NCBI GenBank assembly: GCA_023898725.1
Contig: CP060236.1
Coordinates: 196,920-260,919, forward strand
Source of the DNA: Alphaproteobacteria bacterium
GTDB taxonomy: Bacteria > Pseudomonadota > Alphaproteobacteria > JAUHZC01
Direction: 5' to 3'
DNA length: 64,000 nt
In this document: positions 3,441-30,402 of the stretch, piece after piece
Numbering within the stretch: position 1 is the first letter of the stretch
How the letters are laid out: every line of letters starts with the position of its first letter
The notes under the pieces: generated by a model
The model's input: only the letters and a program-made list of their open reading frames with translations
What the model was told of the DNA's origin: nothing
Databases searched by the model: none
Translations under genes and position numbers: made by a program

Positions 3441-3517
3441 GCGTCCTTAGCTCAGCTGGATAGAGCAACAGCCTTCTAAGCTGTGGGTCGCAGGTTCGAA
3501 TCCTGCAGGACGCACCA
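3441..3517 (+). tRNA. tRNA-Arg with anticodon UCU; the 3' CCA is encoded.
   Basis: The 77-nt sequence folds as a cloverleaf. It has a 7-bp acceptor stem (GCGTCCT/AGGACGC), a D arm GCTC/GAGC and an anticodon stem ACAGC/GCTGT. The anticodon loop is CTTCTAA, giving anticodon TCT. The T arm is GCAGG TTCGAAT CCTGC. Confidence 0.85.
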
Positions 3518-3687: not shown

Positions 3688-6330
3688 TTAGTGGGGGAGC
3701 CGCTTCAACGCTTGAAGGATTTTCTCTTGTGCAGCCTGAGCAGCATCGTGTCTGGCGCGTATTTTTGCGACAGCATCAGGACTGGCGCGGCTGACAAAGT
3801 TCTTATTTGCAAGTTTTTGAGCATTGACATCACACTCAGCTACAAACGCAGCAAGCTCTTTTTCCAGACGTTTGCGTTCTTCTCCAGAGTCAAGCGCATG
3901 CATGACTGGCACGTGAATGGTCGTGCCATCAAAAACAAATTGAAGCGCTTGATCGGGGAAATCCGTCGCCGGGGTAATGGTATTAATCTTTGCTACTATC
4001 GTGCATAGATCCGGAAATTGGGCAAAAATAAAGGGCAGCTGACTGTTGGTCTCAACCAACAGGTCAAGGCCTTTCCCTGGTGCAATACCTGCATCAGCCC
4101 TCAACCCTCGCAGATCTTTGATCAAGCGAATCAATGTATCAATCCCTGCAATGGCGTGTTTGTCCGCCTCTAACGCCTCTGAAAAAGAGGGCCACTCTGT
4201 AGCTATGAGCATACCTTCTTCCGCATAGAAATGCGCATGAATTTCCTCCGTCACAAAGGGCATCAACGGGTTTACAAAAATCAATACTTGGCGCAACACC
4301 CACATAAGCGTTTCTTGCGTTTCACGATGAGCCTTATGCGTGTTGTTTTGTAAGGCAGGCTTTGCGAGCTCCACATACCAATCACAGACCGCCCCCCAAA
4401 CGAACTGATAAACACTGTGCGTCACACGATCAAAGCGGTAGTTTTCTAAATGTGCTTCCAGCACGCGACTCTGGGCATAGACTTGATCCACAATCCACTG
4501 ATTGACAGGATACGTCACGCTACATGGGTCAAATGCCCTACGGTACTGGCATTGATAGTGCTCGCATAATCGCGCCACATTCCATAATTTTGTGCCAAAA
4601 TTCCTGTATCCCTCAATTTGAGATTCTTTAAATTTAATATCCACCCCTGGGGCCGCATATGAAGCCATACCAAAGCGCAACGCATCAGAGCCATATTTGT
4701 CTATCAGCACCAAAGGATCGATCACATTGCCTTTTGACTTAGACATTTTTTGACCATGCTCGTCACGCACCAGCGCATTCATATAAACGGTATGAAAGGG
4801 TACCTCACCCATACAATGTATTCCCATCATCATCATGCGCGCCACCCAAAAAAAGATAATATCAAAACCCGTCACAAGAACGTCACCAGGATAATAACGT
4901 GCAAGCTCAGTTGTTTGATGCGGCCACCCCAGAGTACTAAAAGGCCACAAAGCAGAAGAAAACCATGTGTCTAAAACATCAGCATCGCGCCTCAGGGAAA
5001 CCGCTTCTCCGTAATGCGCTATCGCCAGTTTTTGGGCTTCTTCTTCATCATGAGCCACGAAGTGAGCCTCATCCGGACCATACCACACGGGAATTTGATG
5101 ACCCCACCAAATCTGGCGCGAAATGCACCACGGCTGAATATTCCGCATCCACTCAAAGTACGTTGCCGTCCATTTTTCGGGAACAAACTTTGTTTTCCCT
5201 TCTTCTACGGCTTGTATTGCTTTAGCAGCCAGCGGTTCAACATTCATAAACCATTGCAGTGTCATATATGGCTCAACCTCAACACCACTGCGTTGACTAT
5301 GCGGAACAGGGCGCGTCGTTTCTTCGACTGTGATGAGCTGATCTGTTGCATCAAGCGCTGCAACTACTGCTTTGCGCGCCGCATACCGATCGAGGCCAAC
5401 AAAACGTTCTGGGACAACTCCCGGGAGCAATCTGAGGCCTTTATCCATCACCGTAATGTGTGGCAACCCATGGCGACGACCTACCTCAAAATCGTTAAAG
5501 TCATGAGCAGGGGTAATCTTAACTGCTCCTGTTCCTTTCTCCGGATCTGAATAATCATCTGCAATAACAGGAATGGTTCGATCAGTAAGCGGCACCCGAA
5601 CCTTTTTTCCCACAAGGTGGGCATAACGCTCATCTTTAGGATTCACCGCGATAGCCGTGTCTCCAAAGAGTGTTTCGGGACGAGTGGTCGCAATGACAAG
5701 GGAGTCCTTACTATCGCAGAGAGGATAAGCAATGTGATAGTAATGACCCTTGATGTCTTTAGTTTCCACCTCAAGATCAGAGACAGCTGTTTGCAAAACA
5801 ACATCCCAATTGACCAAACGCTCCGCACGATAAATTAATCCCTCATTATAAAGCCGCACAAACACCTCCCGCACAGCCTCATTCAGCCCTTCATCCATTG
5901 TAAAACGGGCCCGTTTCCAATCCGGTGTTATGCCTAAGCGACGCTGCTGATCAAAAATTCGGTTTCCGGACTCCGCACGCCATTCCCACACGCGCGCTAT
6001 AAAGGCATCGCGACCAAGATCATGACGCGTGCGCTTTTCCTCTGCCAATTGGCGCTCGACAATCATTTGTGTTGCAATCCCCGCATGATCCATACCGGGT
6101 TGCCAAAAGGCATCCATGCCCTTCAAACGCTTGTAACGAATCATAATATCTTGAAGTGTGTAGTTCAGCGCATGCCCCATATGCAAGGATCCCGTCACGT
6201 TAGGGGGGGGCATCATGATGACATATGGTTTTTTACCAGAAGCTGTATTACCAGCGGTTAGGCCAGACTCGTCCCACGCAGCAATCCATTTATTCTCAAG
6301 ATTTCGCGGGTTATATGTTTTATCAAGCAT
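3688..6330 (-). CDS. valS: Valine--tRNA ligase.
   Basis: The 880-aa product carries the class I HIGH motif (PPPNVTGSLHMGHA) and the KMSKS motif (KMSKSKGN). It also has a ValRS-type editing domain and an anticodon-binding domain. Confidence 0.95.
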   Translation of the reverse strand: MLDKTYNPRNLENKWIAAWDESGLTAGNTASGKKPYVIMMPPPNVTGSLHMGHALNYTLQDIMIRYKRLKGMDAFWQPGMDHAGIATQMIVERQLAEEKRTRHDLGRDAFIARVWEWRAESGNRIFDQQRRLGITPDWKRARFTMDEGLNEAVREVFVRLYNEGLIYRAERLVNWDVVLQTAVSDLEVETKDIKGHYYHIAYPLCDSKDSLVIATTRPETLFGDTAIAVNPKDERYAHLVGKKVRVPLTDRTIPVIADDYSDPEKGTGAVKITPAHDFNDFEVGRRHGLPHITVMDKGLRLLPGVVPERFVGLDRYAARKAVVAALDATDQLITVEETTRPVPHSQRSGVEVEPYMTLQWFMNVEPLAAKAIQAVEEGKTKFVPEKWTATYFEWMRNIQPWCISRQIWWGHQIPVWYGPDEAHFVAHDEEEAQKLAIAHYGEAVSLRRDADVLDTWFSSALWPFSTLGWPHQTTELARYYPGDVLVTGFDIIFFWVARMMMMGIHCMGEVPFHTVYMNALVRDEHGQKMSKSKGNVIDPLVLIDKYGSDALRFGMASYAAPGVDIKFKESQIEGYRNFGTKLWNVARLCEHYQCQYRRAFDPCSVTYPVNQWIVDQVYAQSRVLEAHLENYRFDRVTHSVYQFVWGAVCDWYVELAKPALQNNTHKAHRETQETLMWVLRQVLIFVNPLMPFVTEEIHAHFYAEEGMLIATEWPSFSEALEADKHAIAGIDTLIRLIKDLRGLRADAGIAPGKGLDLLVETNSQLPFIFAQFPDLCTIVAKINTITPATDFPDQALQFVFDGTTIHVPVMHALDSGEERKRLEKELAAFVAECDVNAQKLANKNFVSRASPDAVAKIRARHDAAQAAQEKILQALKRLPH

Positions 6331-6489
6331 GTGATGAACCTCTCAGGAACATGTATCAGGTAATACCCGTATTATCAGGAATTTCTTCCTGACTCAACAT
6401 GACTGTCCGTGGGTGAACAGCAAAAATAATACGCATAGGAGCGAGCAATCTTCTAAGGGTAGAATATGGGTAGAATATGATCCGCTTCG

Positions 6490-7866
6490 TTAAGCGCGTT
6501 TGCTGGGGTCTGCTTCTGCATGAAGAATGGTGGTTACCGTTGTTACGTCTTCGTCAAGAAGCGCTGCAATCTCAGCAGGAGTTTGTCCAGCACGCGCAAG
6601 TCGTGCCATCACTTCCCGGAGTTTCTCCTGCGCTCCTTCTTCTTTTCCTTCTACTCTTCCTTGCGCTAATCCTTCTTCCTTTCCACGGGCATGTTCTTCA
6701 GCCGTGTAGATTGAGAAACGATCATACTCAAGACCTTCAGCAACATATGCGTCGTGCACATCTTCGGGAAGGTTGGTGATCCGAATCATCTCAAAAGCCC
6801 TCTTGACAGCGGGGGTAGCGATGGTTGCCTCAACTTCAGTGGCACTCATAAGATGGGCACGCGTGAAGAACGTCAGCCAATCTTGTTGCTCACGGGAATC
6901 CACAACTGCAGGCGCATTAGCAAGCGAATACTGTACCAGTTCAATCCCATCAATAAAGCGCCGCGGCGTATGGAGTTGTTCTTGCATGCGATATCGTCGC
7001 ACGTATTGTTCGGGGGTGTCGCGCCAATGATCCCCGCGTACACCCGCCAAAATGTTAATCCCAATGACTTTCTTGAGATCACGCCAATGGTCCCCACGGC
7101 GCAGTTGATTGCCATAAAAGGCGGCCACATAGGCAAGCGCACGTTCATCCCAATAGTCCTGAGGGATGACTTGCGTTTCGATCAAGGCATATTCACCCGT
7201 TTCTAACTGGCAGACAAAGTCCATGGTGCCGTTATACCGGACCTTTGGAAAAGCATGAACAAGATCATCAAACGATGCCACCATGCGGCGCAACAACTGG
7301 GTGGCTTGGGGATGTAGGGCTAACTCATCTTCGAGGGTATCTTGTAAGTGAACCTGAACCTGACGGGCACCGTCAAGTTCAGCAACAGTTTGACGGGTGT
7401 CCGCCCGATGAAGGAGGGTGCGCAAGGTTTGCATTTCTTGCAAGGGGTTCATGTGGTCATCCAGGCGTTTGGATTCCACAATCCCGATGTCGGGCACAAA
7501 GGCATGCAAAAAAGAGGGACGCACCTCATCGTCGGCAAGCACCAACTTAAAGGGGGCATCAAAGGTTGGGACTGTATAATCCTGTTGGCGTCCGCGGGGA
7601 AAGGCACTGATACTGTCGCGGGTGTTATCTGGGCCTCTTTTGGGTTTGGTGGCAAACCCACGACCAGGAACAATGCCCACCCAAGGAGCTAAAACGCTTC
7701 TTGCACTTTTTGGTGGGGTCTTAGCCCAGAAAACAGCTCGGGTTGATCCTCCCGCTGCGCGTGATCCCACCAGACAGAGTTCTTCAGCAGCGACCTTCCA
7801 GATGGCATGTATGGGTGCGTGCAGAGAGCTTAAAGAGATAAAGGCAACAAGTAAAAACGGCATCAT
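6490..7866 (-). CDS. Rpn/YhgA-like PD-(D/E)XK recombination-promoting nuclease (PDDEXK_1 / TIGR01784-type putative transposase), paralog copy 1, with an N-terminal extension.
   Basis: The N-terminal block DAPFKLVLADDEVRPSFLHAFVPD resembles the E. coli YhgA DAVFKTFM...FLEIHLPE block. The catalytic-core pattern MDFVCQLETGEYALIETQ matches D...E.Q. The C-terminal helix has G-x3-G heptads (EGLAQGRVEGKEEGAQE). The tail is ARLARAGQTPAEIAALLDEDVTTVTTIL. The start is set at ATGATG (MMPFLL) with an upstream GGAGG; the longer TTG-initiated ORF reaches 7893. Confidence 0.75.
   Translation of the reverse strand: MMPFLLVAFISLSSLHAPIHAIWKVAAEELCLVGSRAAGGSTRAVFWAKTPPKSARSVLAPWVGIVPGRGFATKPKRGPDNTRDSISAFPRGRQQDYTVPTFDAPFKLVLADDEVRPSFLHAFVPDIGIVESKRLDDHMNPLQEMQTLRTLLHRADTRQTVAELDGARQVQVHLQDTLEDELALHPQATQLLRRMVASFDDLVHAFPKVRYNGTMDFVCQLETGEYALIETQVIPQDYWDERALAYVAAFYGNQLRRGDHWRDLKKVIGINILAGVRGDHWRDTPEQYVRRYRMQEQLHTPRRFIDGIELVQYSLANAPAVVDSREQQDWLTFFTRAHLMSATEVEATIATPAVKRAFEMIRITNLPEDVHDAYVAEGLEYDRFSIYTAEEHARGKEEGLAQGRVEGKEEGAQEKLREVMARLARAGQTPAEIAALLDEDVTTVTTILHAEADPSKRA
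6628..6687 (-). repeat. In-frame 24-bp coding repeat array (KEEGLAQG unit) in Rpn-like copy 1. It holds 1 full unit plus the RVEG half-unit.
   Basis: A direct tandem repeat of GGAAAAGAAGAAGGATTAGCGCAA is present on the coding strand. Its copy number differs among the five paralogs. Confidence 0.8.
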
Positions 7867-8209
7867 GGATAAAACCTCCAACAATTCACACAAAACCTAT
7901 CAAAAGATTCCCAAATAGTCAAGATTTCATACACGGGTGGCACCCTGAAGGATAGGTAGATAGCTTCATAGGATATGAGACAGATCGCATATCTGCAGCA
8001 TCTACACAAACGACACGCATCCATAAAGCAGATAGCAGCAACGTATCATTTTGAAGGATAGCTTTTTAGGCAGAGACAGGTGTTAGTGGCTTTGTCGCTC
8101 AAGAGTTTCTCCTGACCTTCTGTGCCATCATCCTTATATAAGCGTTCCTATCGTGTGGGAGAGAACAATCTTCTAAAGGTAGAATAAGGGTAGAATATGA
8201 CCCGCTTCG

Positions 8210-9598
8210 TTAAGCGCGTTTGCTGGAGTCTGCTTCTGCATGCAGAATGGTGGTTACCGTTGTTACGTCTTCGTCAAGAAGCGCTGCAATCTCAGCAGGA
8301 GTTTGTCCAGCACGCGTAAGTCGTGCCATCACTTCCCGGAGTTTCTCTTGCGCTCCTTCTTCCTTTCCTTGGGCTAATCCTTCTTCTTTTCCTTGCGCTA
8401 ATCCTTCTTCTTTTCCACGGGCATGTTCTTCAGCCGTGTAGATTGAGAAACGATCATACTCAAGACCTTCAGCAACATATGCGTCGTGCACATCTTCGGG
8501 AAGGTTAGTGATCCGAATCATCTCAAAAGCCCTCTTGACAGCGGGGGTAGCGATGGTTGCCTCAACTTCAGTGGCACTCATAAGATGGGCACGCGTGAAG
8601 AACGTCAGCCAATCTTGTTGCTCACGGGAATCCACAACTGCAGGCGCATTAGCAAGCGAATACTGTACCAGTTCAATCCCATCAATAAAGCGCCGCGGCG
8701 TATGGAGTTGTTCTTGCATGCGATATCGTCGCACGTATTGTTCGGGGGTGTCGCGCCAATGATCCCCGCGTACACCCGCCAAAATGTTAATCCCAATGAC
8801 TTTCTTGAGATCACGCCAATGGTCCCCACGGCGCAGTTGATTGCCATAAAAGGCGGCCACATAGGCAAGCGCACGTTCATCCCAATAGTCCTGAGGGATG
8901 ACTTGCGTTTCGATCAAGGCATATTCACCCGTTTCTAACTGGCAGACAAAGTCCATGGTGCCGTTATACCGGACCTTTGGAAAAGCATGAACAAGATCAT
9001 CAAACGATGCCACCATGCGGCGCAACAACTGGGTGGCTTGGGGATGTAGGGCTAACTCATCTTCGAGGGTATCTTGTAAGTGAACCTGAACCTGACGGGC
9101 ACCGTCAAGTTCAGCAACAGTTTGACGGGTGTCCGCCCGATGAAGGAGGGTGCGCAAGGTTTGCATTTCTTGCAAGGGGTTCATGTGGTCATCCAGGCGT
9201 TTGGATTCCACAATCCCGATGTCGGGCACAAAGGCATGCAAAAAAGAGGGACGCACCTCATCGTCGGCAAGCACCAACTTAAAGGGGGCATCAAAGGTTG
9301 GGACTGTATAATCCTGTTGGCGTCCGCGGGGAAAGGCACTGATACTGTCGCGGGTGTTATCTGGGCCTCTTTTGGGTTTGGTGGCAAACCCACGACCAGG
9401 AACAATGCCCACCCAAGGAGCTAAAACGCTTCTTGCACTTTTTGGTGGGGTCTTAGCCCAGAAAACAGCTCGGGTTGATCCTCCCGCTGCGCGTGATCCC
9501 ACCAGATAGAGTTCTTCAGCAGCGACCTTCCAGCTGGCATGTAGGGGTGCGTGCAGAGAGCTTAAAGAGATAAAGGCAACAAGTAAAAACGGCATCAT
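8210..9598 (-). CDS. Rpn/YhgA-like PD-(D/E)XK nuclease, paralog copy 2.
   Basis: It is about 99% identical to copy 1 in protein sequence. The C-terminal repeat region reads KEEGLAQGKEEGLAQGKEEGAQE (2 units, no RVEG). Confidence 0.75.
   Translation of the reverse strand: MMPFLLVAFISLSSLHAPLHASWKVAAEELYLVGSRAAGGSTRAVFWAKTPPKSARSVLAPWVGIVPGRGFATKPKRGPDNTRDSISAFPRGRQQDYTVPTFDAPFKLVLADDEVRPSFLHAFVPDIGIVESKRLDDHMNPLQEMQTLRTLLHRADTRQTVAELDGARQVQVHLQDTLEDELALHPQATQLLRRMVASFDDLVHAFPKVRYNGTMDFVCQLETGEYALIETQVIPQDYWDERALAYVAAFYGNQLRRGDHWRDLKKVIGINILAGVRGDHWRDTPEQYVRRYRMQEQLHTPRRFIDGIELVQYSLANAPAVVDSREQQDWLTFFTRAHLMSATEVEATIATPAVKRAFEMIRITNLPEDVHDAYVAEGLEYDRFSIYTAEEHARGKEEGLAQGKEEGLAQGKEEGAQEKLREVMARLTRAGQTPAEIAALLDEDVTTVTTILHAEADSSKRA
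8347..8419 (-). repeat. 24-bp coding repeat array, copy 2 (2 full units).
   Basis: Tandem copies of the 24-bp unit are visible. They are reverse-complemented on the + strand. Confidence 0.8.
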
Positions 9599-9716
9599 GG
9601 ATAAAACCTCCAACAATTCACACAAAACCTATCAAAAGATTCCCAAATAGTCAAGATTTCATGCGCTTTATGGGGAGAGGGCTTAGCTGTGTAGAGTCCT
9701 TTACAAGAACCCTCTT

Positions 9717-17109: not shown

Positions 17110-18522
17110 ATGATGCCGTTTTTACTTGTTGCCTTTATCTCTTTAAGCTCTCTGCACGCACCCCTACATGCCAGCTGGCATGCCAGCTGGAAGGTCGCTG
17201 CTGAAGAACTCTGTCTGGTGGGATCACGCGCAGCGGGAGGATCAACCCGAGCTGTTTTCTGGGCTAAGACCCCACCAAAAAGTGCAAGAAGCGTTTTAGC
17301 TCCTTGGGTGGGCATTGTTCCTGGTCGTGGGTTTGCCACCAAACCCAAAAGAGGCCCAGATAACACCCGCGACAGTATCAGTGCCTTTCCCCGCGGACGC
17401 CAACAGGATTATACAGTCCCAACCTTTGATGCCCCCTTTAAGTTGGTGCTTGCCGACGATGAGGTGCGTCCCTCTTTTTTGCATGCCTTTGTGCCCGACA
17501 TCGGGATTGTGGAATCCAAACGCCTGGATGACCACATGAACCCCTTGCAAGAAATGCAAACCTTGCGCACCCTCCTTCATCGGGCGGACACCCGTCAAAC
17601 TGTTGCTGAACTTGACGGTGCCCGTCAGGTTCAGGTTCACTTACAAGATACCCTCGAAGATGAGTTAGCCCTACATCCCCAAGCCACCCAGTTGTTGCGC
17701 CGCATGGTGGCATCGTTTGATGATCTTGTTCATGCTTTTCCAAAGGTCCGGTATAACGGCACCATGGACTTTGTCTGCCAGTTAGAAACGGGTGAATATG
17801 CCTTGATCGAAACGCAAGTCATCCCTCAGGACTATTGGGATGAACGTGCGCTTGCCTATGTGGCCGCCTTTTATGGCAATCAACTGCGCCGTGGGGACCA
17901 TTGGCGTGATCTCAAGAAAGTCATTGGGATTAACATTTTGGCGGGTGTACGCGGGGATCATTGGCGCGACACCCCCGAACAATACGTGCGACGATATCGC
18001 ATGCAAGAACAACTCCATACGCCGCGGCGCTTTATTGATGGGATTGAACTGGTACAGTATTCGCTTGCTAATGCGCCTGCAGTTGTGGATTCCCGTGAGC
18101 AACAAGATTGGCTGACGTTCTTCACGCGTGCCCATCTTATGAGTGCCACTGAAGTTGAGGCAACCATCGCTACCCCCGCTGTCAAGAGGGCTTTTGAGAT
18201 GATTCGGATCACCAACCTTCCCGAAGATGTGCACGACGCATATGTTGCTGAAGGTCTTGAGTATGATCGTTTCTCAATCTACACGGCTGAAGAACATGCC
18301 CGTGGAAAGGAAGAAGGATTAGCGCAAGGAAAGGAAGAAGGATTAGCGCAAGGAAGAGTAGAAGGAAAAGAAGAAGGAGCGCAGGAGAAACTCCGGGAAG
18401 TGATGGCACGACTTGCGCGTGCTGGACAAACCCCTGCTGAGATTGCAGCGCTTCTTGACGAAGACGTAACAACGGTAACCACCATTCTGCATGCAGAAGC
18501 AGACTCCAGCAAACGCGCTTAA
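17110..18522 (+). CDS. Rpn/YhgA-like PD-(D/E)XK nuclease, paralog copy 5.
   Basis: It carries a 12-bp in-frame duplication near the N-terminus (LHASWHASWKV; CATGCCAGCTGG twice). The C-terminal repeat reads KEEGLAQGKEEGLAQGRVEGKEEGAQE (2 units plus RVEG). Confidence 0.75.
   Translation: MMPFLLVAFISLSSLHAPLHASWHASWKVAAEELCLVGSRAAGGSTRAVFWAKTPPKSARSVLAPWVGIVPGRGFATKPKRGPDNTRDSISAFPRGRQQDYTVPTFDAPFKLVLADDEVRPSFLHAFVPDIGIVESKRLDDHMNPLQEMQTLRTLLHRADTRQTVAELDGARQVQVHLQDTLEDELALHPQATQLLRRMVASFDDLVHAFPKVRYNGTMDFVCQLETGEYALIETQVIPQDYWDERALAYVAAFYGNQLRRGDHWRDLKKVIGINILAGVRGDHWRDTPEQYVRRYRMQEQLHTPRRFIDGIELVQYSLANAPAVVDSREQQDWLTFFTRAHLMSATEVEATIATPAVKRAFEMIRITNLPEDVHDAYVAEGLEYDRFSIYTAEEHARGKEEGLAQGKEEGLAQGRVEGKEEGAQEKLREVMARLARAGQTPAEIAALLDEDVTTVTTILHAEADSSKRA
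18304..18387 (+). repeat. 24-bp coding repeat array, copy 5 (2 units plus RVEG).
   Basis: Seen directly. The units are GGAAAGGAAGAAGGATTAGCGCAA variants. Confidence 0.8.
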
Positions 18523-18568
18523 CGAAGCGGATCATATTCTACCCTTATTCTACCCTTAGAAGATTGTT

Positions 18569-18777
18569 CTCTCCCACACGATAGGAACGCTTATATAAGG
18601 ATGATGGCACAGAAGGTCAGGAGAAACTCTTGAGCGACAAAGCCACTAACGCCTGTCTCTGCCTAAAAAGCTATCCTTCAAAATGATACGTTGCTGCTAT
18701 CTGCTTTATGGATGCGTGTCGTTTGTGTAGATGCCGCAGATATGCGATCTGTCTCATATCCTATGAACCTCTACAAA
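18569..18777 (+). repeat. Orphan partial leader copy (repeat unit F) with no gene. It ends 80 bp upstream of acpS.
   Basis: It is identical to the first ~210 bp of the unit leader and diverges after CTATGAA. Confidence 0.8.
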
Positions 18778-18856: not shown

Positions 18857-19276
18857 ATGATTATTGGCACAGGAATTGATATTATCGAACTTTCACGCAT
18901 TGCTGATATGGTCGGAAAGTTTGGTGATCAATTTACCAAACGTATCTGTACTTTAGTGGAAATTGAACGCATACCCGCTAACGATCAAATTCCTTTTATT
19001 GCCAAACGATGGGCAACGAAAGAAGCAGCCGTAAAAGCACTAGGAACAGGATTTCGTGAAGATGTCACTTTTCAAGATATGTGGACAACGCATGATACCC
19101 TAGGGCGCCCTATTTTGCACCTCTCCCCTGCGCTTCATGCACGACTAACGCAGACAATCCCTTCCAACTATATCTTGCGCACACACGTTAGCACCTCTGA
19201 TACGTGTAACGATGCAATTGCCATGGTTACACTTGAGATTATTCGTGAATCCATTAATATTCCGCCATTACTCTAA
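18857..19276 (+). CDS. acpS: Holo-[acyl-carrier-protein] synthase.
   Basis: The 139-aa product starts MIIGTGIDIIELSRI. It has the conserved GTGxDxxE motif and a KEAxxKAxG segment typical of AcpS. Confidence 0.85.
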   Translation: MIIGTGIDIIELSRIADMVGKFGDQFTKRICTLVEIERIPANDQIPFIAKRWATKEAAVKALGTGFREDVTFQDMWTTHDTLGRPILHLSPALHARLTQTIPSNYILRTHVSTSDTCNDAIAMVTLEIIRESINIPPLL

Positions 19277-22526: not shown

Positions 22527-23825
22527 CTAACTTCCCCGCTTGGACGAAAGGGGAGGTGTTTCTACAGGGGGATTCCCATCACCAAATTGGCGCAGGGCAT
22601 CATACTGTCTCTGATACTGTGCATGGGAACTCTTTGGTTGAATAGGATAAAACTCTCCTTGTGGAAAAGCTCTCTCTTCACCCGAGGGTGTAACCCCGGG
22701 GTTTGGCGTGTGGGAAACTTGTGGCGCTAGCGTTTTTCCCTGTTTTGCCCCAAACTGCTCAAATGTGTTTTGGTAGAATTGGGGATATTGCATGATTTCT
22801 TTCATGATCTCCCCCAGATCAAGATCCGACCAACTCATAACCTTACGCAACAAATAGTGTCCGGGATTATGCGGCTCATAAGCAGAAAAATACGCCACCA
22901 CATTTGCTAGCTGTTTGTATGCATCCTTACGGCTCATAAGGGGGCCCGAATGGTGTGCAAGAGGGGTAGCTTCTGAACCAGAATCACTGTGTGTGTCTGA
23001 CTGTGGTGTTTGTTTATCTGAAAGGGAAGAGTCGCATAAAATTGTGGTGCTTTTATCGGTTTTTTCATGGGGGATCGCTTTGTGAGGAATCGGACATATG
23101 TCACGAATAACCTCATCAATGAAGGAACCAAAATCGCTCAACACGCGCTTCAGCTTATATAAACTACCCTGGGTTTGTTGATGCTTTTCCCCCATGAGTG
23201 CATCAAGCTGCGCAAGGGTTTTTTGAGCAGATTCAAGATCTTTCTGAAACGCCTGATATACCACAGGGTTTGTGCGAGAAATTGCCGTGCGCAACCGCTT
23301 AAGGCGAACGCGATTACCCTCAACCTTTTGATTTGCGCTGACAATGGTCCACTCACCAAACGTGAAGGTATCGGATTCTTCCAGTTTTTCAGCAATGGAA
23401 AGTTCATACATGCGCTCGGGTATTTTTTCATTAACCCAATCAAGAACGGCAAGCCGAGCATCAATATCACCATCCTTCATATTCGGGAAAAAACTGTCCC
23501 AAAACATATCAAATATCATTCCAAATACCTTGAGTCCTGCAGAAAGTCCCCGGAGGCCATCTTTCTTGATGGCTGCCTCCATGAGCCAAGAAGCAACCTG
23601 CAAATCTTTCGATTTTTCTGCAAGAATTTGGCTACACAGATGAATTATTTTTGTCCAGTCTGCCCGTTTTAGTTCTATTTTCCAGACACCTTGGGGTAAG
23701 GTTGGGTCATCCTCTCTGCGTGCTTCTTGGATCACATCGTACTCATCACCATGACGAATATCTTCACCAGATGGTTTTTTTTCAGAAAGAGGTTTCAACA
23801 GAAGGGCGTAGTTTAGATCAGTCAT
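22527..23825 (-). CDS. tssA: Type VI secretion protein TssA (ImpA N-terminal domain family).
   Basis: The ImpA_N signature is present: LLKPLSEKKPSGEDIRHGDEYDVIQEARREDDPTLPQGVWKIELKRADWTKIIHLCSQILAEKSKDLQVASWLMEA. The 4-bp overlap with tssM (ATGA) indicates translational coupling. Confidence 0.8.
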   Translation of the reverse strand: MTDLNYALLLKPLSEKKPSGEDIRHGDEYDVIQEARREDDPTLPQGVWKIELKRADWTKIIHLCSQILAEKSKDLQVASWLMEAAIKKDGLRGLSAGLKVFGMIFDMFWDSFFPNMKDGDIDARLAVLDWVNEKIPERMYELSIAEKLEESDTFTFGEWTIVSANQKVEGNRVRLKRLRTAISRTNPVVYQAFQKDLESAQKTLAQLDALMGEKHQQTQGSLYKLKRVLSDFGSFIDEVIRDICPIPHKAIPHEKTDKSTTILCDSSLSDKQTPQSDTHSDSGSEATPLAHHSGPLMSRKDAYKQLANVVAYFSAYEPHNPGHYLLRKVMSWSDLDLGEIMKEIMQYPQFYQNTFEQFGAKQGKTLAPQVSHTPNPGVTPSGEERAFPQGEFYPIQPKSSHAQYQRQYDALRQFGDGNPPVETPPLSSKRGS

Positions 23826-26800
23826 TCACTGCCTCCTCCCTCCTGATCCAGGCCATCATCCGAGGGAATTACCGGTGATTGCGTGGGGAAGTTTAGCGAT
23901 GACAACGCCCGATCCAAGAGTCTTTTTTGGGCTTCTTTAGCAGAGTCTTCTGGGGATCCTTCACCCTTTTTTTCTAATAACTTAATGTCATAAATTATTG
24001 TGCTCACACCTTTTTGGGTGCTGGGAGGGGCACCGTTTGCCCCAGGTGTTTCAGGAAACATAATTGGAATATCAATTTTCACGGTCCAATGACGCTCGAC
24101 ACCTGCATTAGGAGTTACAATTTCCGCTTTGTTTTCTTTTAGAAGATGTAACATAGCCCACTGACCCTCATAAAAGAAAAGAGCTTTTGTTTCCTCCTCA
24201 ACTTCATAGGCGGCATTATCGTGATTGGCCGTTGGAGCGGGATATTTCTTGTTTGCCGTGCTTTTGACAAACTGTAATTCAAGATGGGTATTATCTCCTG
24301 AGTAATAATCAAATGTCTTGAGTTTGTCACCATTGCGAATGGCAGTCATGCTATCGTGCCCACCGGACGGATCCCCCACTCGAAAAATGCGGCGCATGAC
24401 AAAATTATTTTGTGTTTCCAGTTTTTTCTTTGCATCAACATCGACCTCAAATGTAAGACCGTCAATGTCTTCACCTTGGGCATTATTACCCCCTGCATGT
24501 AATAACCGGCGAGAAGCCCGCATAAACTTCAAGAAATGAAGAATCCTGGATTTTAATGGCGAACGTCGCGCTTCTTTTTCCAGAAGCTCATAATCATACG
24601 GTGTCAAGAGATCCATCAACTTATAGAATGTGTGCATGTCACGCAAAGAGGCCTCACGTTCGCCGGGCATATAGGCACGCTTGGTGAAGGGGAAGCGATC
24701 AGAAAGCGTACTATTAAAAAACGTTGCAAGGCGATTGTAGCGCTCTTTAAAGCGTCCTTGGGACAGACCGATGCAACGCTTACTCAAAAGTGTTTGGATT
24801 TTTCCACGACGCTCAAGAAAATAGTCTCCCGTTCCCTCAGAAACCTGCATGCCACAATTATTCATACTGACAAGATTCATATTTTTAATCACATACTCTT
24901 CCAAAGAGGCCACGGAATTCCCCGGTTTTTTTTGCGTATAGTAATCCAGTTGACCAAGGACACGCTCCCAGCGATGGATGGTTGGAAGATCACTGGGTGT
25001 ATCCTCCAGATTTGTTAAGCGCAAAAAATCAAGGAGCGGATGGGCCAGTTCTTTTGCAAAATAAGAGACACGCTGAATTTGAGCTGTAAGATATGTCTCA
25101 AGTCCCTCTTGATCATCAACAGAAAAGGCCCTATATCCAACATTTGTTTCCCCCTCCCACCAATCAAAATTTCCATTGCGTACGCTAAATAAATCTTGTG
25201 TGTCGAGCATTTTATCAACACGCCGCAGCATGTCATATGTTTGCGTAATGAGAAGCTCTGGAAGGCCCGTTTCTTTAAACTTAATGTCTCTGACGTTAAA
25301 AACTGAGAGAATTTTACGGAACTGTGGGGTAACAACCCGGATATTTTGCACCTGTGAATTAAGACGCTCTTGCGCGCCATAGCTCATAAACTGGACAGGC
25401 GCATCAAAAAAAGTCTGTGACTTTCCAAGAATACTAAGAATTTTCTTACGCAGGCTATTGGTTGCAACAAACTTGAGAATCGCTCGGAATTGGCCCTGAA
25501 TTTCCATCATGGTATTTTCAACAAAGTGGGTGTAGGTATCTATCAGTTTTTCAGCATTACCAAGGGTTACTGAATCCCAAACAAGAAGTTTTCCAGGAGG
25601 TACAGGACGTAATTTCTGTACAACCGCATCTTCAATCATAAACGTTTGCTTGAGAAAATCCTCCAAAACCTTATGAAGGTTTTTAAGACCATCGGAGACC
25701 CCCGCTCGCAGAACATTATTCGCACGCACAAAAAAATGTGACGAAAGAGGTGTTCGCATGGCAAGCAATTCTTCTTTAAACTTCTCAAATCTTGTGCGAA
25801 TCTTTTCTGAGACCTGACTGGCTATCGCAATGCCCAAAATTTCTGAGCTTGCAATAGTGGTCATAAGTTCGGAAAAATCCTCACCAGGGTTAAAAACAGA
25901 ACTCTCAATCCATTTGATGGTAGGCGATGAAAGATCTTGCATAACTACTTGCGTAAGCGCATACAAGTTTCGCAAATCTTTATCATCTGTTTCAAGCCCC
26001 CCTGGGCGGCTGAGCACATCAAGCTGATCGCGCAATTTGATGACCTGGGGTAGGTTTTTTTCTGTGTTAAATGAGGCTGCCATAAAGGCAGAAAGGCGCT
26101 GGTTCAGCTTTTCTTCTGCTTTTCGCCTAATCCCTTGTACGTGAACATTGATATCGGTCGTATCTGAAAGAGCTACACGGTAATAACTTTTATTCTGAAA
26201 TTTTTGCCCCGAAAAATCGCGGTCATACACATACCGAATAAGCTTAAGAACATTATCAATGCTCTGGCTCACTTCAATGTCGTTGTAGAGAGCAATATGC
26301 TTTTCGTATTCGCTTATTTCTGCCACATAATTGCGTAAGTTCCGAAATTCTGGTAATTTTATAGGATCAATGCTTGCGGACACTTCATGTTCAAAGTCTA
26401 CCTCTAAGTGACTCAACGATGTAATAACATCCCCTTTTTTGCGCAATTCATTGTGAATCGCCGCCAGAATAATATCATCATAGGCCACAGTCAAAGAATC
26501 ATTAATCCGATCCTGCAACGAAACAAACCAGGAAGAAGGGATAAAAAGACTCCACGTTTTTGTTGTTGAAACGCCCCCCATCAGATTAATAATTGAGCGC
26601 GTTTGTTCATTAAGAAAGATATTCCGTTGGGCTTCTTTACGAGGTCCTTGCAATTTATGAACGCCATCAACTGCGCGGTGAATCTGATGCAACAATGGAT
26701 ATGTCAGCTTGTGTGTGTTTGTCAGATTTTCGTTCACCCATAAAAGCCCTATGAACCACCCAAGACACACAACAGCCATCATACCTTTAGCAAAATTCAA

Positions 26801-28126
26801 GGCCCGGTTAGTAGAGACAAGAATATGTAAAATCGGTTGCGCAAGATTTGCCTCACGGAAAATTTTGTACTCAAAAAGATGCGTTACAAAAGCAATTTTT
26901 CTTGGGCCAGCATTCATGATAGGTGGGGATGATACCGAAACACTCTGGGGGGGTTCTGGTGAGGGTTGCTGGTTGTTCGTCACTGTATCAGCATGTGAAT
27001 CAGCGGCAATATTCTTACGAGGAGGTATTACAGTATTTGTAGCGCTTGCGTGTTCATCGCCTGTAAAATAGACACCCCGCAAAAAGAAAGATTCATGATA
27101 GGCGCTATCGCGAAAAATATTATCCATGTACAGGCGCAAGTTTTTTTCGACGGACTCAACACTTTCACGAAACAGGAAAGTCCCTTCCCGCGTTTGTGCA
27201 TCACCATCTTGCGTAAAAACTAACCCTCGCAGCTTTTGGACCATATAACGCATATGGTGGAAAAAGTCATAGCCCCACTGGGGCGAGTAGCTAACATCAA
27301 GAGCATAAGGACATGACCAACCAAATATTTCCTTGCGGCGCTCGGGGGGTATTTCGTGTGCGAACTCTTTAAAGCCCTCCAAGTAGTCAGACTTTGTCAC
27401 AACAACATACACAGGAACTTTCATTTGCAGTTGTGCTTGCAGCTGCCATAACCGCTGATGAATCTGTTTTGCTCGGTCTGTTAACTCATCGTGTGTCAAA
27501 ACATTGGCGCCGACAAGTTCATCAGCAGGGATTGTTAGAATAATACCGTCTAGAGGTCGGCGAGGGCGATGGCGGGCAATGAGATTGAGAAGGTATTTCC
27601 AACCCTTATCGTCACCGTGTGGTGTCTTTTTTCCGACAAGAAGATCGCCTGCAGTATCCAGGATAATCCCGCGATCGAAAAACCACCACTGGCAATAACT
27701 ATTAGACATGCTTTCTGCAAAGTCGGGGCGTCCGATTGGAAGTTCAAGATTTACATGGTTCAAAAACTCTGTTTTTCCAGATCCTTGAGCGCCAATCATC
27801 AAATACCAAGGGATTTCATACTTAAAATTATTCCCTGGGATATAGGTTTTGAGAACCTCAATAGCCTTGTCAAAAGATAATGCTAAGTCATCACTGGCAC
27901 TCCCCTTAAAGAACCCAATAAATCTTTCCCAGAGAGATTTTTGTGGTTCAGGGGGTGTTTCATCTTCTTTGGGAATGGGTGGAGCCAGAGCCCGACGTTT
28001 AGCCGCACGTTTGAGCGCCAACGATGCGCTCACAATAACACCTATGGCGATAATCAATGCCAAAAGCATTGACCCCCAAATCGCATACACAAGATATGGT
28101 GAAAGTTGCTCCAGGAGGGCTATCAT
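23822..28126 (-). CDS. tssM: Type VI secretion membrane-complex protein TssM (IcmF).
   Basis: The 1434-aa product has N-terminal TM helices and a Walker A P-loop (MIGAQGSGKTEFL). The IcmF-related central and C-terminal domains are present. The start overlaps the tssL stop. Confidence 0.9.
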   Translation of the reverse strand: MIALLEQLSPYLVYAIWGSMLLALIIAIGVIVSASLALKRAAKRRALAPPIPKEDETPPEPQKSLWERFIGFFKGSASDDLALSFDKAIEVLKTYIPGNNFKYEIPWYLMIGAQGSGKTEFLNHVNLELPIGRPDFAESMSNSYCQWWFFDRGIILDTAGDLLVGKKTPHGDDKGWKYLLNLIARHRPRRPLDGIILTIPADELVGANVLTHDELTDRAKQIHQRLWQLQAQLQMKVPVYVVVTKSDYLEGFKEFAHEIPPERRKEIFGWSCPYALDVSYSPQWGYDFFHHMRYMVQKLRGLVFTQDGDAQTREGTFLFRESVESVEKNLRLYMDNIFRDSAYHESFFLRGVYFTGDEHASATNTVIPPRKNIAADSHADTVTNNQQPSPEPPQSVSVSSPPIMNAGPRKIAFVTHLFEYKIFREANLAQPILHILVSTNRALNFAKGMMAVVCLGWFIGLLWVNENLTNTHKLTYPLLHQIHRAVDGVHKLQGPRKEAQRNIFLNEQTRSIINLMGGVSTTKTWSLFIPSSWFVSLQDRINDSLTVAYDDIILAAIHNELRKKGDVITSLSHLEVDFEHEVSASIDPIKLPEFRNLRNYVAEISEYEKHIALYNDIEVSQSIDNVLKLIRYVYDRDFSGQKFQNKSYYRVALSDTTDINVHVQGIRRKAEEKLNQRLSAFMAASFNTEKNLPQVIKLRDQLDVLSRPGGLETDDKDLRNLYALTQVVMQDLSSPTIKWIESSVFNPGEDFSELMTTIASSEILGIAIASQVSEKIRTRFEKFKEELLAMRTPLSSHFFVRANNVLRAGVSDGLKNLHKVLEDFLKQTFMIEDAVVQKLRPVPPGKLLVWDSVTLGNAEKLIDTYTHFVENTMMEIQGQFRAILKFVATNSLRKKILSILGKSQTFFDAPVQFMSYGAQERLNSQVQNIRVVTPQFRKILSVFNVRDIKFKETGLPELLITQTYDMLRRVDKMLDTQDLFSVRNGNFDWWEGETNVGYRAFSVDDQEGLETYLTAQIQRVSYFAKELAHPLLDFLRLTNLEDTPSDLPTIHRWERVLGQLDYYTQKKPGNSVASLEEYVIKNMNLVSMNNCGMQVSEGTGDYFLERRGKIQTLLSKRCIGLSQGRFKERYNRLATFFNSTLSDRFPFTKRAYMPGEREASLRDMHTFYKLMDLLTPYDYELLEKEARRSPLKSRILHFLKFMRASRRLLHAGGNNAQGEDIDGLTFEVDVDAKKKLETQNNFVMRRIFRVGDPSGGHDSMTAIRNGDKLKTFDYYSGDNTHLELQFVKSTANKKYPAPTANHDNAAYEVEEETKALFFYEGQWAMLHLLKENKAEIVTPNAGVERHWTVKIDIPIMFPETPGANGAPPSTQKGVSTIIYDIKLLEKKGEGSPEDSAKEAQKRLLDRALSSLNFPTQSPVIPSDDGLDQEGGGSE

Positions 28127-28911
28127 GGGGAACGCCCCTTTAATGCTTCGTGTAAGCGCACAATATCATCCGATTTTACAAGCAAGGGGCGTGTGTTGTG
28201 ATGCCAAATTTGATACGAGGCCAGAAGAAGCGTCAAGACCATGACAAAGAAAACAACAATCCACGGACGAAAGTTGTGTAACGACTTTGATTCTCCACCC
28301 TCAAGGGTGTTTACATAAGCACTGACAAAAAGAGGTTTTTTCACATTCTCAATTTCAGGTTCTTCATGGTGAATGAATACGTACAATTGGCGACGATAGT
28401 GATGCAAGTCCATCAGGTTGTCATGACCACGAAATCGCCCCAAAAACCCAAGACCTAAGGCCATTAAATATAAGTATCCAATATCCGCACGCATCGCATC
28501 ACGCTTCTGGAGAAAATCATCAAGATTCGTGAAAAATTTTTCACCGGCCGTGTGGCTGCCAAAAACTTGATTTTCCAACAAGTTTTTTTCCCATGTTTTC
28601 TGGCCTGCCCAAACATGATGGATAAAAACTTCATCTGCATACGCGGCCATGATGAACTGGGCCTCACGATAGAATTGCGAAGCAAACTCTCCACCAAAAC
28701 GCGGGGCCTCCAAAGCCTGTCGGTCAAGCGTTTCCTTCAGGTTACGTGCCGTCACAACAGCCATGCTGGCGGCACACGGCCCTGGATAATCCTCGGAAGG
28801 AATCCACGCCTGTTGATCGATTAGCTTTTTGTAATAAGCAACCTTTGCCACAAACTCCTCAAAGAAGCGAATAACAAAAGATGTTTCTGCATTTTTTAGC
28901 TGCTTATTCAC
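28123..28911 (-). CDS. tssL: Type VI secretion membrane-complex protein TssL (DotU family), with no peptidoglycan-binding extension.
   Basis: The 262-aa product has a DotU-like cytoplasmic domain and a single C-terminal TM helix (IVVFFVMVLTLLLASY). It lies in the TssL position upstream of tssM. Confidence 0.7.
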   Translation of the reverse strand: MNKQLKNAETSFVIRFFEEFVAKVAYYKKLIDQQAWIPSEDYPGPCAASMAVVTARNLKETLDRQALEAPRFGGEFASQFYREAQFIMAAYADEVFIHHVWAGQKTWEKNLLENQVFGSHTAGEKFFTNLDDFLQKRDAMRADIGYLYLMALGLGFLGRFRGHDNLMDLHHYRRQLYVFIHHEEPEIENVKKPLFVSAYVNTLEGGESKSLHNFRPWIVVFFVMVLTLLLASYQIWHHNTRPLLVKSDDIVRLHEALKGRSP

Positions 28912-29067
28912 TTTATTTAAGCCTATTTCCGTTTATTAGATAGCATTCACCATCTTCAGTTAAGCGGATTTGTGTAAAATTTTAGTTAAATTTCTCGAAC
29001 ATTCCTAAGGATTTTTTATACGCTTAAGGCTTGAAGTCTTTCTATACGTTTTTTCTCAAAAAAGATT

Positions 29068-30402
29068 TTATGCGCTTGAGTCCTTTTGTTTTTTTGGTAC
29101 GTACATAACAATCTCAACAGGGCGCAGATCATCACTATCTGACGCATTGAATATTTGAAGAACATCATCACCATCGATCATTTTTTCACTCACATTAACA
29201 GCAAATAAAACCATTCCCTTTGCAGGCATTAATTGCAAGCTTTCTACCTGTTCGAGCAATTTACGTTCTGCCCCACGCACGCGCATATCTCTTGCGGCTT
29301 CAGCATAATTTTGAGAGGCAATGACAGCGTCACTGACCCACTCCGCTAACTGTTTTTCACTCATCATTACATTGCCCCGGGCACCTAAAATGAGCGTATC
29401 ATTCACAGCGAGACCCTTGAGATTAAGCTCAAAGAGAGATTCCTTAAGAAGAAAGGGAACAACAGAATATCCTTCTTGAATGCGATCAATCATTGAATTC
29501 ATAAAAGCAAGAACCTCTGTGAAGCTTCGCTGCAAATCAAGGTGATCATATCCGTGAAATGTAGGGGGAATTTGCCCAGGATCAATTCCCGCAATGGTGC
29601 CCGCACACTGACACAAAAGCTGATACACAGCGTAAGGGTGATTCGCTTGATTCAAAACTGCCTCAAGCGGAAGAAGTGTTCCGGACAAAATGCGCACCGC
29701 ATCTTCGCTTTCTCTGGATAATAATCCTCGTGAATTTGCGCGCATTCGCTCAACCAAAAATGCTATTTTTTTACGCAAGCGCTTGGCCAATCCAGCAAAA
29801 TTTTTATGCACAGGGTTTTCAGAACCAAGAAGCAAAAAAGGAGGCAAATAGGATGTTGCAACGTATGCATTGGAACGAAACTCGATCCGCATCAGCGGAA
29901 GAGAAACAAACCCCGCCGGCGGTTCTTTTCCTAAAACAAGCCGTAAATTAGGACGCAAGCGCGGCACGTGAATCGCATTTTCACCCGTATTTTCATCCAG
30001 TACATTTTTTACTTCGTAAGAAACATAACGCGGCAACTCTGCATCTACGCTTGCATTCCCATACCCCCTTCGATAAGGGGGTATGCACAGGTATACCGTT
30101 TGGGGTGAGGCGATAAGTGCATCTTGGTGCGGGACTAAGTCTATTTCTAAACCTTCTTTTGCCCGCGCAACTGAAACGGGACAACCATCTGGCATGATTG
30201 CCTCCAAAGCCTGAACGCGCAAAGCCCCACTCATCAAAAGAATGTTATCTACCTCAATGTGTGCAACACCCCAGTGAAAGGGATCATTGTTGCGCAGATG
30301 AAACCAAATTTCCTCCTGCTTCTGATGATCCGATGCCTGAAAATGCTGTGGTGACAAAAGCATACCTTCGTGCCACTGTATCAAGTCAAGATCATACTTC
30401 AT
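29068..30402 (-). CDS. tssK: Type VI secretion baseplate protein TssK.
   Basis: The N-terminal signature is WHEGMLLSPQHFQASD. The length (444 aa) and the position adjacent to tssL are typical. Confidence 0.8.
   Translation of the reverse strand: MKYDLDLIQWHEGMLLSPQHFQASDHQKQEEIWFHLRNNDPFHWGVAHIEVDNILLMSGALRVQALEAIMPDGCPVSVARAKEGLEIDLVPHQDALIASPQTVYLCIPPYRRGYGNASVDAELPRYVSYEVKNVLDENTGENAIHVPRLRPNLRLVLGKEPPAGFVSLPLMRIEFRSNAYVATSYLPPFLLLGSENPVHKNFAGLAKRLRKKIAFLVERMRANSRGLLSRESEDAVRILSGTLLPLEAVLNQANHPYAVYQLLCQCAGTIAGIDPGQIPPTFHGYDHLDLQRSFTEVLAFMNSMIDRIQEGYSVVPFLLKESLFELNLKGLAVNDTLILGARGNVMMSEKQLAEWVSDAVIASQNYAEAARDMRVRGAERKLLEQVESLQLMPAKGMVLFAVNVSEKMIDGDDVLQIFNASDSDDLRPVEIVMYVPKKQKDSSA

Follow-up and report, generated by a model that had tools for sequence, protein, structure and literature searches.

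An array of near-identical Rpn-superfamily genes with a different repeat number in each copy, predicted to encode exported nucleases, in an alphaproteobacterial genome

Introduction

How does the whole interval between two housekeeping genes come to be filled with copies of one gene, and what might the copies do? The question is raised by a stretch of 64,000 nucleotides (nt) of an alphaproteobacterial genome (assembly GCA_023898725.1, contig CP060236.1, positions 196,920 to 260,919), hereafter called the window, in which the valS-acpS interval (6438-18770) is occupied by five intact Rpn-like genes (U1 to U5), a 218-nt gene fragment and an orphan leader. The repeat unit is about 1.75 kb long; U1, U2 and U3 point leftward, and U4 and U5 point rightward. 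The contig (1,107,460 bp) is a metagenome-assembled genome (MAG) in which the proteins of the locus are annotated as USO01611-USO01619, and the host is probably an intracellular symbiont. Here we argue that the locus is likely to be a lineage-specific local amplification of an rpn-family cassette, predicted to provide a panel of exported nucleases with helix-length specificity.

Rpn proteins are toxic endonucleases neutralised by the intragenic product RpnS, and a role in phage defence has been reported for one of them (PMC10400941). Arrays of rpn genes arising from tandem direct duplication are known, and it has been argued that Rpn proteins are not transposases, there being no evidence of transposition (Zhong et al. 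2023, PMC10400941). Octomom and the amplified, palindromic cid islands of Wolbachia have monomorphic PDDEXK2 genes at their flanks (PMC13439711, PMC12445526). A preliminary description of the window had counted five full and two partial copies filling the interval, three leftward and two rightward, and both the open reading frames (ORFs) and the repeat comparison bear this out. Neither the putative signal peptide nor the main difference between the copies, the number of a repeat of four amino acids (aa), was part of it.

Results

The array genes encode a divergent Rpn-superfamily protein

All five copies matched PF12784 (PDDEXK_2) with 63 bits against a gathering threshold of 27.4 (E about 4e-17), the match covering profile positions 56-213 only. 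TIGR01784 was matched barely above its cutoff (52.4 versus 52.1 bits, U4 tested), and PF04754, the YhgA-like family of the E. coli RpnA-E branch, was not matched even at E <= 0.1. The Rpn/YhgA-superfamily PD-(D/E)XK identity and the TIGR01784 membership put forward in the preliminary description are thus upheld, and PF04754, which it had named as the Pfam family, is replaced by PF12784. Counted from the ATG that follows GGAGG, with the stop codon included in the coordinates, the five ORFs are intact, as first described, and encode 454-474 aa; the lengths of 459-483 aa given earlier were counted from an upstream TTG.

Residues D103 (in TFDAPFK), D216, E230-x-Q232 and R242 were invariant across 54 homologs. 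They stand in the same order and with the same Q-to-R spacing as D11, D63, E82-x-Q84 and R94, the catalytic residues of RpnA (PMC5350276), a mapping that rests on motifs. Canonical Rpn proteins aligned to residues ~213-464 only, at 24-27% identity. Using hhalign, the C-terminal 30 columns of the clade profile were aligned to the RpnA tail (E 2.6e-5), and against the single RpnA sequence the core stayed unaligned. In the AlphaFold model (mean predicted local distance difference test score, pLDDT, 77), residues 1-90 are disordered and are followed by a folded core, a long helix (368-441) carrying the four-aa repeats and then a helix-turn-helix (HTH); the predicted helix and HTH match the architecture reported for RpnA_S (PMC10400941). 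A sequence search of the PDB returned no Rpn match, a designed HTH repeat being the sole match, and all that Foldseek found in the PDB were weak PD-(D/E)XK matches short of significance (EcoO109I, ACE1 and McrC). By its sequence, the array protein is a divergent Rpn-superfamily PD-(D/E)XK (PDDEXK_2) putative nuclease.

Every copy has its own number of four-aa repeats

The main differences between the copies were indels of a 12/24-nt repeat coding for four-aa units (GKEE, GLAQ, GRVE). The number of units ranged from three in U3 to eight in U4, with no two copies equal (Table 1), and similar variation of the four-aa repeat was seen among homologs. In E. coli, RpnS blocks RpnL only when the repeat numbers are equal, and variation in repeat number has been reported between strains (PMC10400941). 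A candidate internal start in U4 (ATG at 16419, with AAGAGG 9 nt upstream) lies just before the long helix. In one metagenome match (L027), a full gene is followed downstream by a free-standing copy of the C-terminal domain alone (8550-8714), which resembles the small RpnS homologs described by Zhong et al.

A second array with the same pattern was found in a Rickettsiaceae MAG (L012; CBDBTV010000005.1, 1-8924), where at least six complete Rpn-like genes with signal-peptide-like starts are arranged head-to-tail. These copies are 92-99% identical and encode 414, 418, 422, 430, 438 and 446 aa; practically their sole difference is the number of GKIE repeats, every count being unique. Their protein is 26-30% identical to the window protein, and a search with it gave no further relatives above 31% identity. 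Two unrelated symbiont lineages therefore hold arrays of otherwise identical genes with a distinct repeat number per copy. Downstream of the Rickettsiaceae array are a resolvase-like ORF (9144-9734) and then a closer relative of the window protein (9893-11197); upstream, the array may extend beyond the stretch examined.

The proteins carry a putative signal peptide

The N-terminus of the window protein is a hydrophobic segment, MMPFLLVAFISLSSLHAPLHA/SW with A at -1, followed by a linker of ~70 aa that is disordered in the model. In U5 alone, 12 nt are duplicated (HASW HASW) in the region where the signal peptide is predicted to be cleaved. Against the relative of 75% identity, the ratio of non-synonymous to synonymous substitution rates (dN/dS) was 0.47 in the linker and 0.088 in the core, and both the frame and the pattern of a hydrophobic stretch followed by A/SW were kept in paralogs of 45% identity. 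These ratios and the persistence of the frame and pattern show the N-terminal extension to be coding.

Among 112 homologs with a recognisable core start, 52 N-termini were signal-peptide-like, 27 were short and canonical, and 33 were other extensions. Many of the 52 are clear textbook cases, e.g. MKKLLLMTLLSLCLGSTLISYGEAA, and clusters of K/R stand just before the core in many of the linkers (18/52 by a simple pattern). Because of the putative signal peptide, an exported nuclease is preferred to a cytoplasmic abortive-infection toxin, and we think it the likelier product of the array genes; this is the weakest step of the interpretation.

A set of relatives (P0022, P0059, P0078, P0103, P0104, P0108, P0111, P0118 and others) lacks a signal peptide and has instead N-termini resembling mitochondrial presequences or basic, eukaryote-like leaders, e.g. 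MLRAALPRAGPLVFKRSFSTK and MPPRKRAPSS. Two metagenome matches (L027 and L060) span more DNA than the protein requires. Family members encoded by eukaryotes are possible on these sequence features.

Anatomy of the repeats and of their ends

The longest gapless inverted repeats measure 1330-1342 nt and are 99-100% identical, with 100% for the pair 12070-13399 and 15233-16562; gapped homology between copies extends over ~1.7 kb at 96%. Between the inner arms lie 1587 nt of unique DNA (13588-15174), so the inverted repeats of about 99% identity around some 1.6 kb of unique DNA in the preliminary description were well founded. The junction motif of the preliminary description occurs 4 times, with 0 expected by chance, and is degraded in U1. 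CTCTCC stands at both ends of the repeating unit (16813-16818 and 18569-18574) and also forms the end of U1 and the start of the U3 leader, which points to microhomology-mediated tandem duplication. The same 35-46-nt element is found at the start and the end of the rightward block. The outer unit ends differ from copy to copy (9664, 13587, 15175 and 6438), and no terminal inverted repeats were detected at the unit or island ends (score 7-10, unit ends 7, against a shuffle mean of 8.6). The U2 leader is truncated at 9664, yet it retains the promoter-like TTGACT and the Shine-Dalgarno sequence. Upstream of every copy we read, by eye, the promoter-like TTGACT-17-TAGGTT; a promoter and terminator scan gave nothing exceeding shuffle expectation.

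The 218-nt fragment (62-aa protein USO01615.1 in the NCBI annotation) is joined directly to 11756, the equivalent of intergenic position 16936. Since a piece of gene is fused there to an intergenic position, the fragment is read as the deletion remnant of a further tandem copy. The segment 18569-18770 is complementary to 13386-13587 at 99%, and the orphan leader it contains is cut within the 46-nt element. As first suggested, the fragment and the orphan leader look like products of rearrangement.

Across the five copies, 4/1255 columns were variable in the 5' part and 16/292 in the 3' part. Single-nucleotide polymorphisms (SNPs) separate U2 from U4 at 4 sites, U1 from U5 at 7, and the remaining pairs at 7-14. 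Such mirror-symmetric sharing is what copying or conversion of a block of two units, in inverted orientation, would leave, and it suggests an event of this kind. Only the U4 leader has extra short tandem repeats, at 15199-15259 (CTATCTAC; 16- and 21-nt periods), and these adjoin the 46-nt element that bounds the rightward block.

The head-to-tail arrangement was also recovered in an independent short-read assembly. Logan contig L023 (SRR14234111; 1798 bp) matches 15278-17075 at 99.6% identity, and its two ends overlap by 30 nt, which indicates a collapsed tandem unit of 1768 bp and gives the head-to-tail junction independent support. Its variants, one new SNP apart, form a mosaic of those in the five copies, as expected from graph assembly of collapsed repeats at k=31.

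Copies and relatives beyond the array

The 90% protein cluster of the array gene has 7 members, of which 6 lie in this locus and the seventh comes from the collapsed Logan contig; judged from these members, no copy of the array gene lies elsewhere on the 1.1-Mb contig. The closest relative outside the genome (L001, 75% aa identity) is a single copy beside an AOX gene, and its homology covers the gene plus ~60 nt upstream and ~18 nt downstream. Among the 52 metagenome loci, mostly short, only L026 had a tandem pair and only L027 a C-terminal fragment downstream. Three relatives on long contigs were single-copy. The only synteny with relatives was one xth gene, which in L004 lies 7 kb from the homolog.

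The tandem pair of L026 lies at 3-302 and 817-1809 and is cut by the contig end. Outside the window, the same genome has a second pair of Rpn-like paralogs with putative signal peptides, USO01686 and USO01688 (P0006 and P0127). They share 45% identity with the array protein and above 90% within the pair, and to judge from the accession numbers a single gene separates them.

Comparison with known arrays

The window protein shares with E. coli RpnA-E the D...D...E-x-Q...R order, the Q-to-R spacing, the C-terminal tail homology, and a long helix with variable four-aa repeats followed by a small HTH-like bundle; in both cases several gene copies are present and tandem arrays can occur. It differs in belonging to PF12784 and not PF04754, in an insertion of ~70 aa between the N-terminal motif and the catalytic Asp, and in an N-terminal extension of ~95 aa made up of the predicted signal peptide and the disordered linker. 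Moreover, a conserved internal start was not found in the window genes, and their repeat number varies among paralogs of one array, not among strains.

The Wolbachia PDDEXK2 loci are alike in their alphaproteobacterial endosymbiont host and in near-identical PDDEXK_2 genes that bracket cargo as facing palindromes; there too, high identity is the proposed driver of recombination and amplification. Unlike the window proteins, the Wolbachia proteins are canonical Rpn proteins of ~300 aa (24-27% identical over the C-terminal half), and their islands lie in prophage WO with a group II intron, MutL and rnhA. In the window the amplified unit is the Rpn gene itself, and the cargo consists of a lysozyme, a protein resembling leucine-rich repeat (LRR) proteins and a probable membrane protein. 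The Rickettsiaceae array resembles that of the window in its head-to-tail, near-identical copies, signal-peptide-like N-terminus and unique four-aa repeat count per copy; it belongs to another subfamily, all its copies are direct, inverted arms are absent, and a resolvase-like gene is adjacent.

The array architecture therefore has precedents, and the array as such is of a known kind: the tandem rpn arrays (PMC10400941) and the palindromic Wolbachia islands (PMC13439711) are earlier cases, whereas the preliminary description knew of no described case of such a clustered, concertedly evolving array. What appear to be new are the signal-peptide-bearing clade and the pattern of one repeat number per copy, of which no description was found in the main text of the Rpn papers.

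Discussion

The anatomy of the locus would be explained if a cassette of leader, gene and short tail was duplicated head-to-tail across the 6-bp microhomology CTCTCC. A two-unit block would then have been copied or inverted to give the mirror-image arms, and the fragment and orphan leader would be what later deletions left behind. The near-perfect identity of the first ~1.25 kb of the gene may be maintained by gene conversion among the copies, and slippage of the 12/24-nt repeat may give each copy a long C-terminal helix of a different length. The five genes would thus form a panel of exported nucleases in which, by analogy with E. coli Rpn, helix length may set oligomerisation or partner specificity. 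Amplification of this kind, together with a predicted exported panel, is the reading we consider probable.

Several points weigh against this reading. The exact copy number and order rest on the MAG assembly, with independent support for the head-to-tail junction. The distinct repeat numbers could merely reflect fast slippage: by our own arithmetic under a uniform-range null, all counts would be distinct by chance with a probability of ~0.09 for the window and ~0.11 for the Rickettsiaceae array. The 3' coding substitutions are mostly synonymous (~8 synonymous to 4 non-synonymous), so the point changes give no evidence of positive selection. No conserved internal start for an RpnS-like protein was found, the Met at 16419 being kept only in the 75% relative. 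As for export, signal peptides were judged by eye and by hydropathy with no trained predictor, and the signal segment of the window protein, which begins MMPF..., has no basic n-region.

The preliminary description had proposed a defence island, a programmed DNA-rearrangement locus or a selfish element; the selfish element is not supported by the analysis, and the defence island drew no independent support from it. A defence function would take the form of a cytoplasmic Rpn toxin-antitoxin or antiphage locus with five orthogonal RpnL/RpnS pairs, the N-terminal segment not being a functional export signal. The properties of the E. coli proteins, which are toxic, neutralised by RpnS and in one case antiphage (PMC10400941), speak for it, as do the homology of the C-terminal domain to the RpnA tail, repeat-number variation of the kind reported there and the free-standing C-terminal fragment downstream of the gene in L027. 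We nevertheless regard it as unlikely, since signal-peptide-like N-termini are conserved across the clade, the conserved internal start is missing, and PADLOC matched neither the Rpn-like protein nor any of the three cargo proteins; low phage pressure would also be expected in a reduced, 1.1-Mb genome that is probably intracellular. A selfish mobile element, with the Rpn-like protein as transposase and the array built by repeated insertion into one hotspot, would fit the wide annotation of the family as 'putative transposase', the plasmid- and insertion-sequence-rich contexts of relatives, their patchy distribution among intracellular bacteria (PMC6490308) and the position of many MAG matches at contig ends, as for multi-copy repeats. 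It is quite improbable, for the unit ends vary by copy and lack terminal inverted repeats, and the 75% relative is homologous only to shortly outside the gene. The protein-cluster members reveal no dispersed copies in the 1.1-Mb genome, Zhong et al. report no evidence of rpn transposition, and a signal peptide is hard to square with a transposase.

Inverted arms of 100% identity around 1.8 kb with a probable membrane-protein gene would also suit a programmed inversion or phase-variation locus, in which the arms flip the central segment or shuffle the 3' ends of the genes; the 3' ends do differ, so that crossing-over would yield new combinations, and L023 combines copy-specific variants in a mosaic. 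The arms consist of whole genes, not short sites, a scan of the array, cargo and flanking ORFs (~3.7-39.9 kb) turned up no recombinase family, and a promoter-like region before each copy means that inversion would leave expression unswitched; with the mosaic explained by graph assembly, we give such a locus very little credence. Equally slight is the chance that copies were inflated or misordered by assembly. The source is indeed a metagenome assembly, 1.7-kb repeats with 99% identity are difficult to resolve in assembly, and short-read assembly collapses them to a single unit. Against an artefact, the copies are told apart by in-frame repeat numbers and SNPs of their own, each is joined by unique junctions to different single-copy DNA, and the tandem junction was recovered independently in L023. 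Local amplification of the cassette thus remains the explanation we prefer.

A wider and distinctly speculative extension, to which we attach low confidence, is that an Rpn clade of obligate intracellular bacteria (Holosporales-like, Paracaedibacteraceae, Rickettsiaceae and Chlamydiota) turned cytoplasmic toxins into exported effectors deployed as helix-length-orthogonal panels. If the products are exported effectors, they could act on host or competitor nucleic acids or serve nucleotide scavenging, and an intragenic C-terminal product staying in the cytoplasm could be the matching immunity protein. The putative signal peptide also raises the possibility that some Rpn proteins act outside the cytoplasm. 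The family would then join the candidate effectors of protist and arthropod symbionts, and blanket labels such as 'transposase' or 'defence' for rpn genes would call for caution. The two arrays look like sets of natural orthogonal variants and could be used to test helix length as a specificity code.

Features of the locus and its surroundings

The coordinates of the array, its cargo and its flanks are listed in Table 1. Two of the three cargo proteins, the lysozyme and the LRR-like protein, have signal-like starts, and the 380-aa protein between the inner arms is, by its composition, probably membrane-embedded.

Table 1. Features of the valS-acpS interval (window positions; leftward genes are written from start to stop).
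Feature	Position	Strand	Description	Basis
valS, left flank	3688..6330	-		family profile match
U1 Rpn-like gene	7866..6490	-	458 aa; 4 four-aa units; tail end 6438	ORF and PF12784
Leader/tail between U2 and U1	7867..8209	-	343 nt, full; collinear with 16767-17109; 7798-8406 versus 16570-17178, 97%	
U2 Rpn-like gene	9598..8210	-	462 aa; 5 units	ORF and PF12784
Cargo gene	9717..10562	-	281 aa; LRR-like look; hydrophobic signal-like N-terminus MKRVMLLILVFLSSLDC	no Pfam match
Cargo gene, phage-type lysozyme	10641..11450	-	signal-like N-terminus	PF00959, E 2.5e-15
Internal gene fragment	11538-11755	-	equivalent to 15625-15842	100% identical over 218 nt
U3 Rpn-like gene	13290..11926	-	454 aa; 3 units; full leader 13291-13587	ORF and PF12784
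Cargo gene between inner arms	13643..14785	+	380 aa; largely hydrophobic	no family match
U4 leader	15175..15341	+	begins with the 46-nt element GCAGATATGCG...CTATC; extra 8/21-nt tandem repeats	
U4 Rpn-like gene	15342..16766	+	474 aa; 8 units; reference copy	ORF and PF12784
12/24-nt tandem repeat, U4	16524..16622	+	codes for GKEE/GLAQ/GRVE units of the long helix	
Equivalents of the 12/24-nt repeat in other copies	6634-6684, 8354-8416, 12065-12108, 18304-18378			
Tail and leader between U4 and U5	16767..17109	+	unit boundary CTCTCC at 16813-16818	
U5 Rpn-like gene	17110..18522	+	470 aa; 6 units	ORF and PF12784
Orphan leader	18575..18770	+	start of a third rightward unit, cut within the 46-nt element	
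acpS, right flank	18857..19276	+		family profile match

The leader and the odd-looking first 300 nt of the ORF were considered as a known structured RNA, which was rejected since the Rfam scan gave no match there. Rfam and tRNA scans of the window had as their sole match a tRNA-Arg(TCT) at 3441-3517 (+), beyond valS and ~3 kb from the island edge. Type VI secretion genes (ImpA/TssA, IcmF/TssM, DotU/TssL and VasE/TssK) lie at 22527-30402 (-), ~4 kb from the array. The G+C content is 0.51-0.53 in the Rpn-like genes (6500-9500, 12000-13000 and 15500-18500) against 0.42-0.47 in the cargo and flanks, and this higher value is compatible with a foreign origin of the Rpn-like genes.

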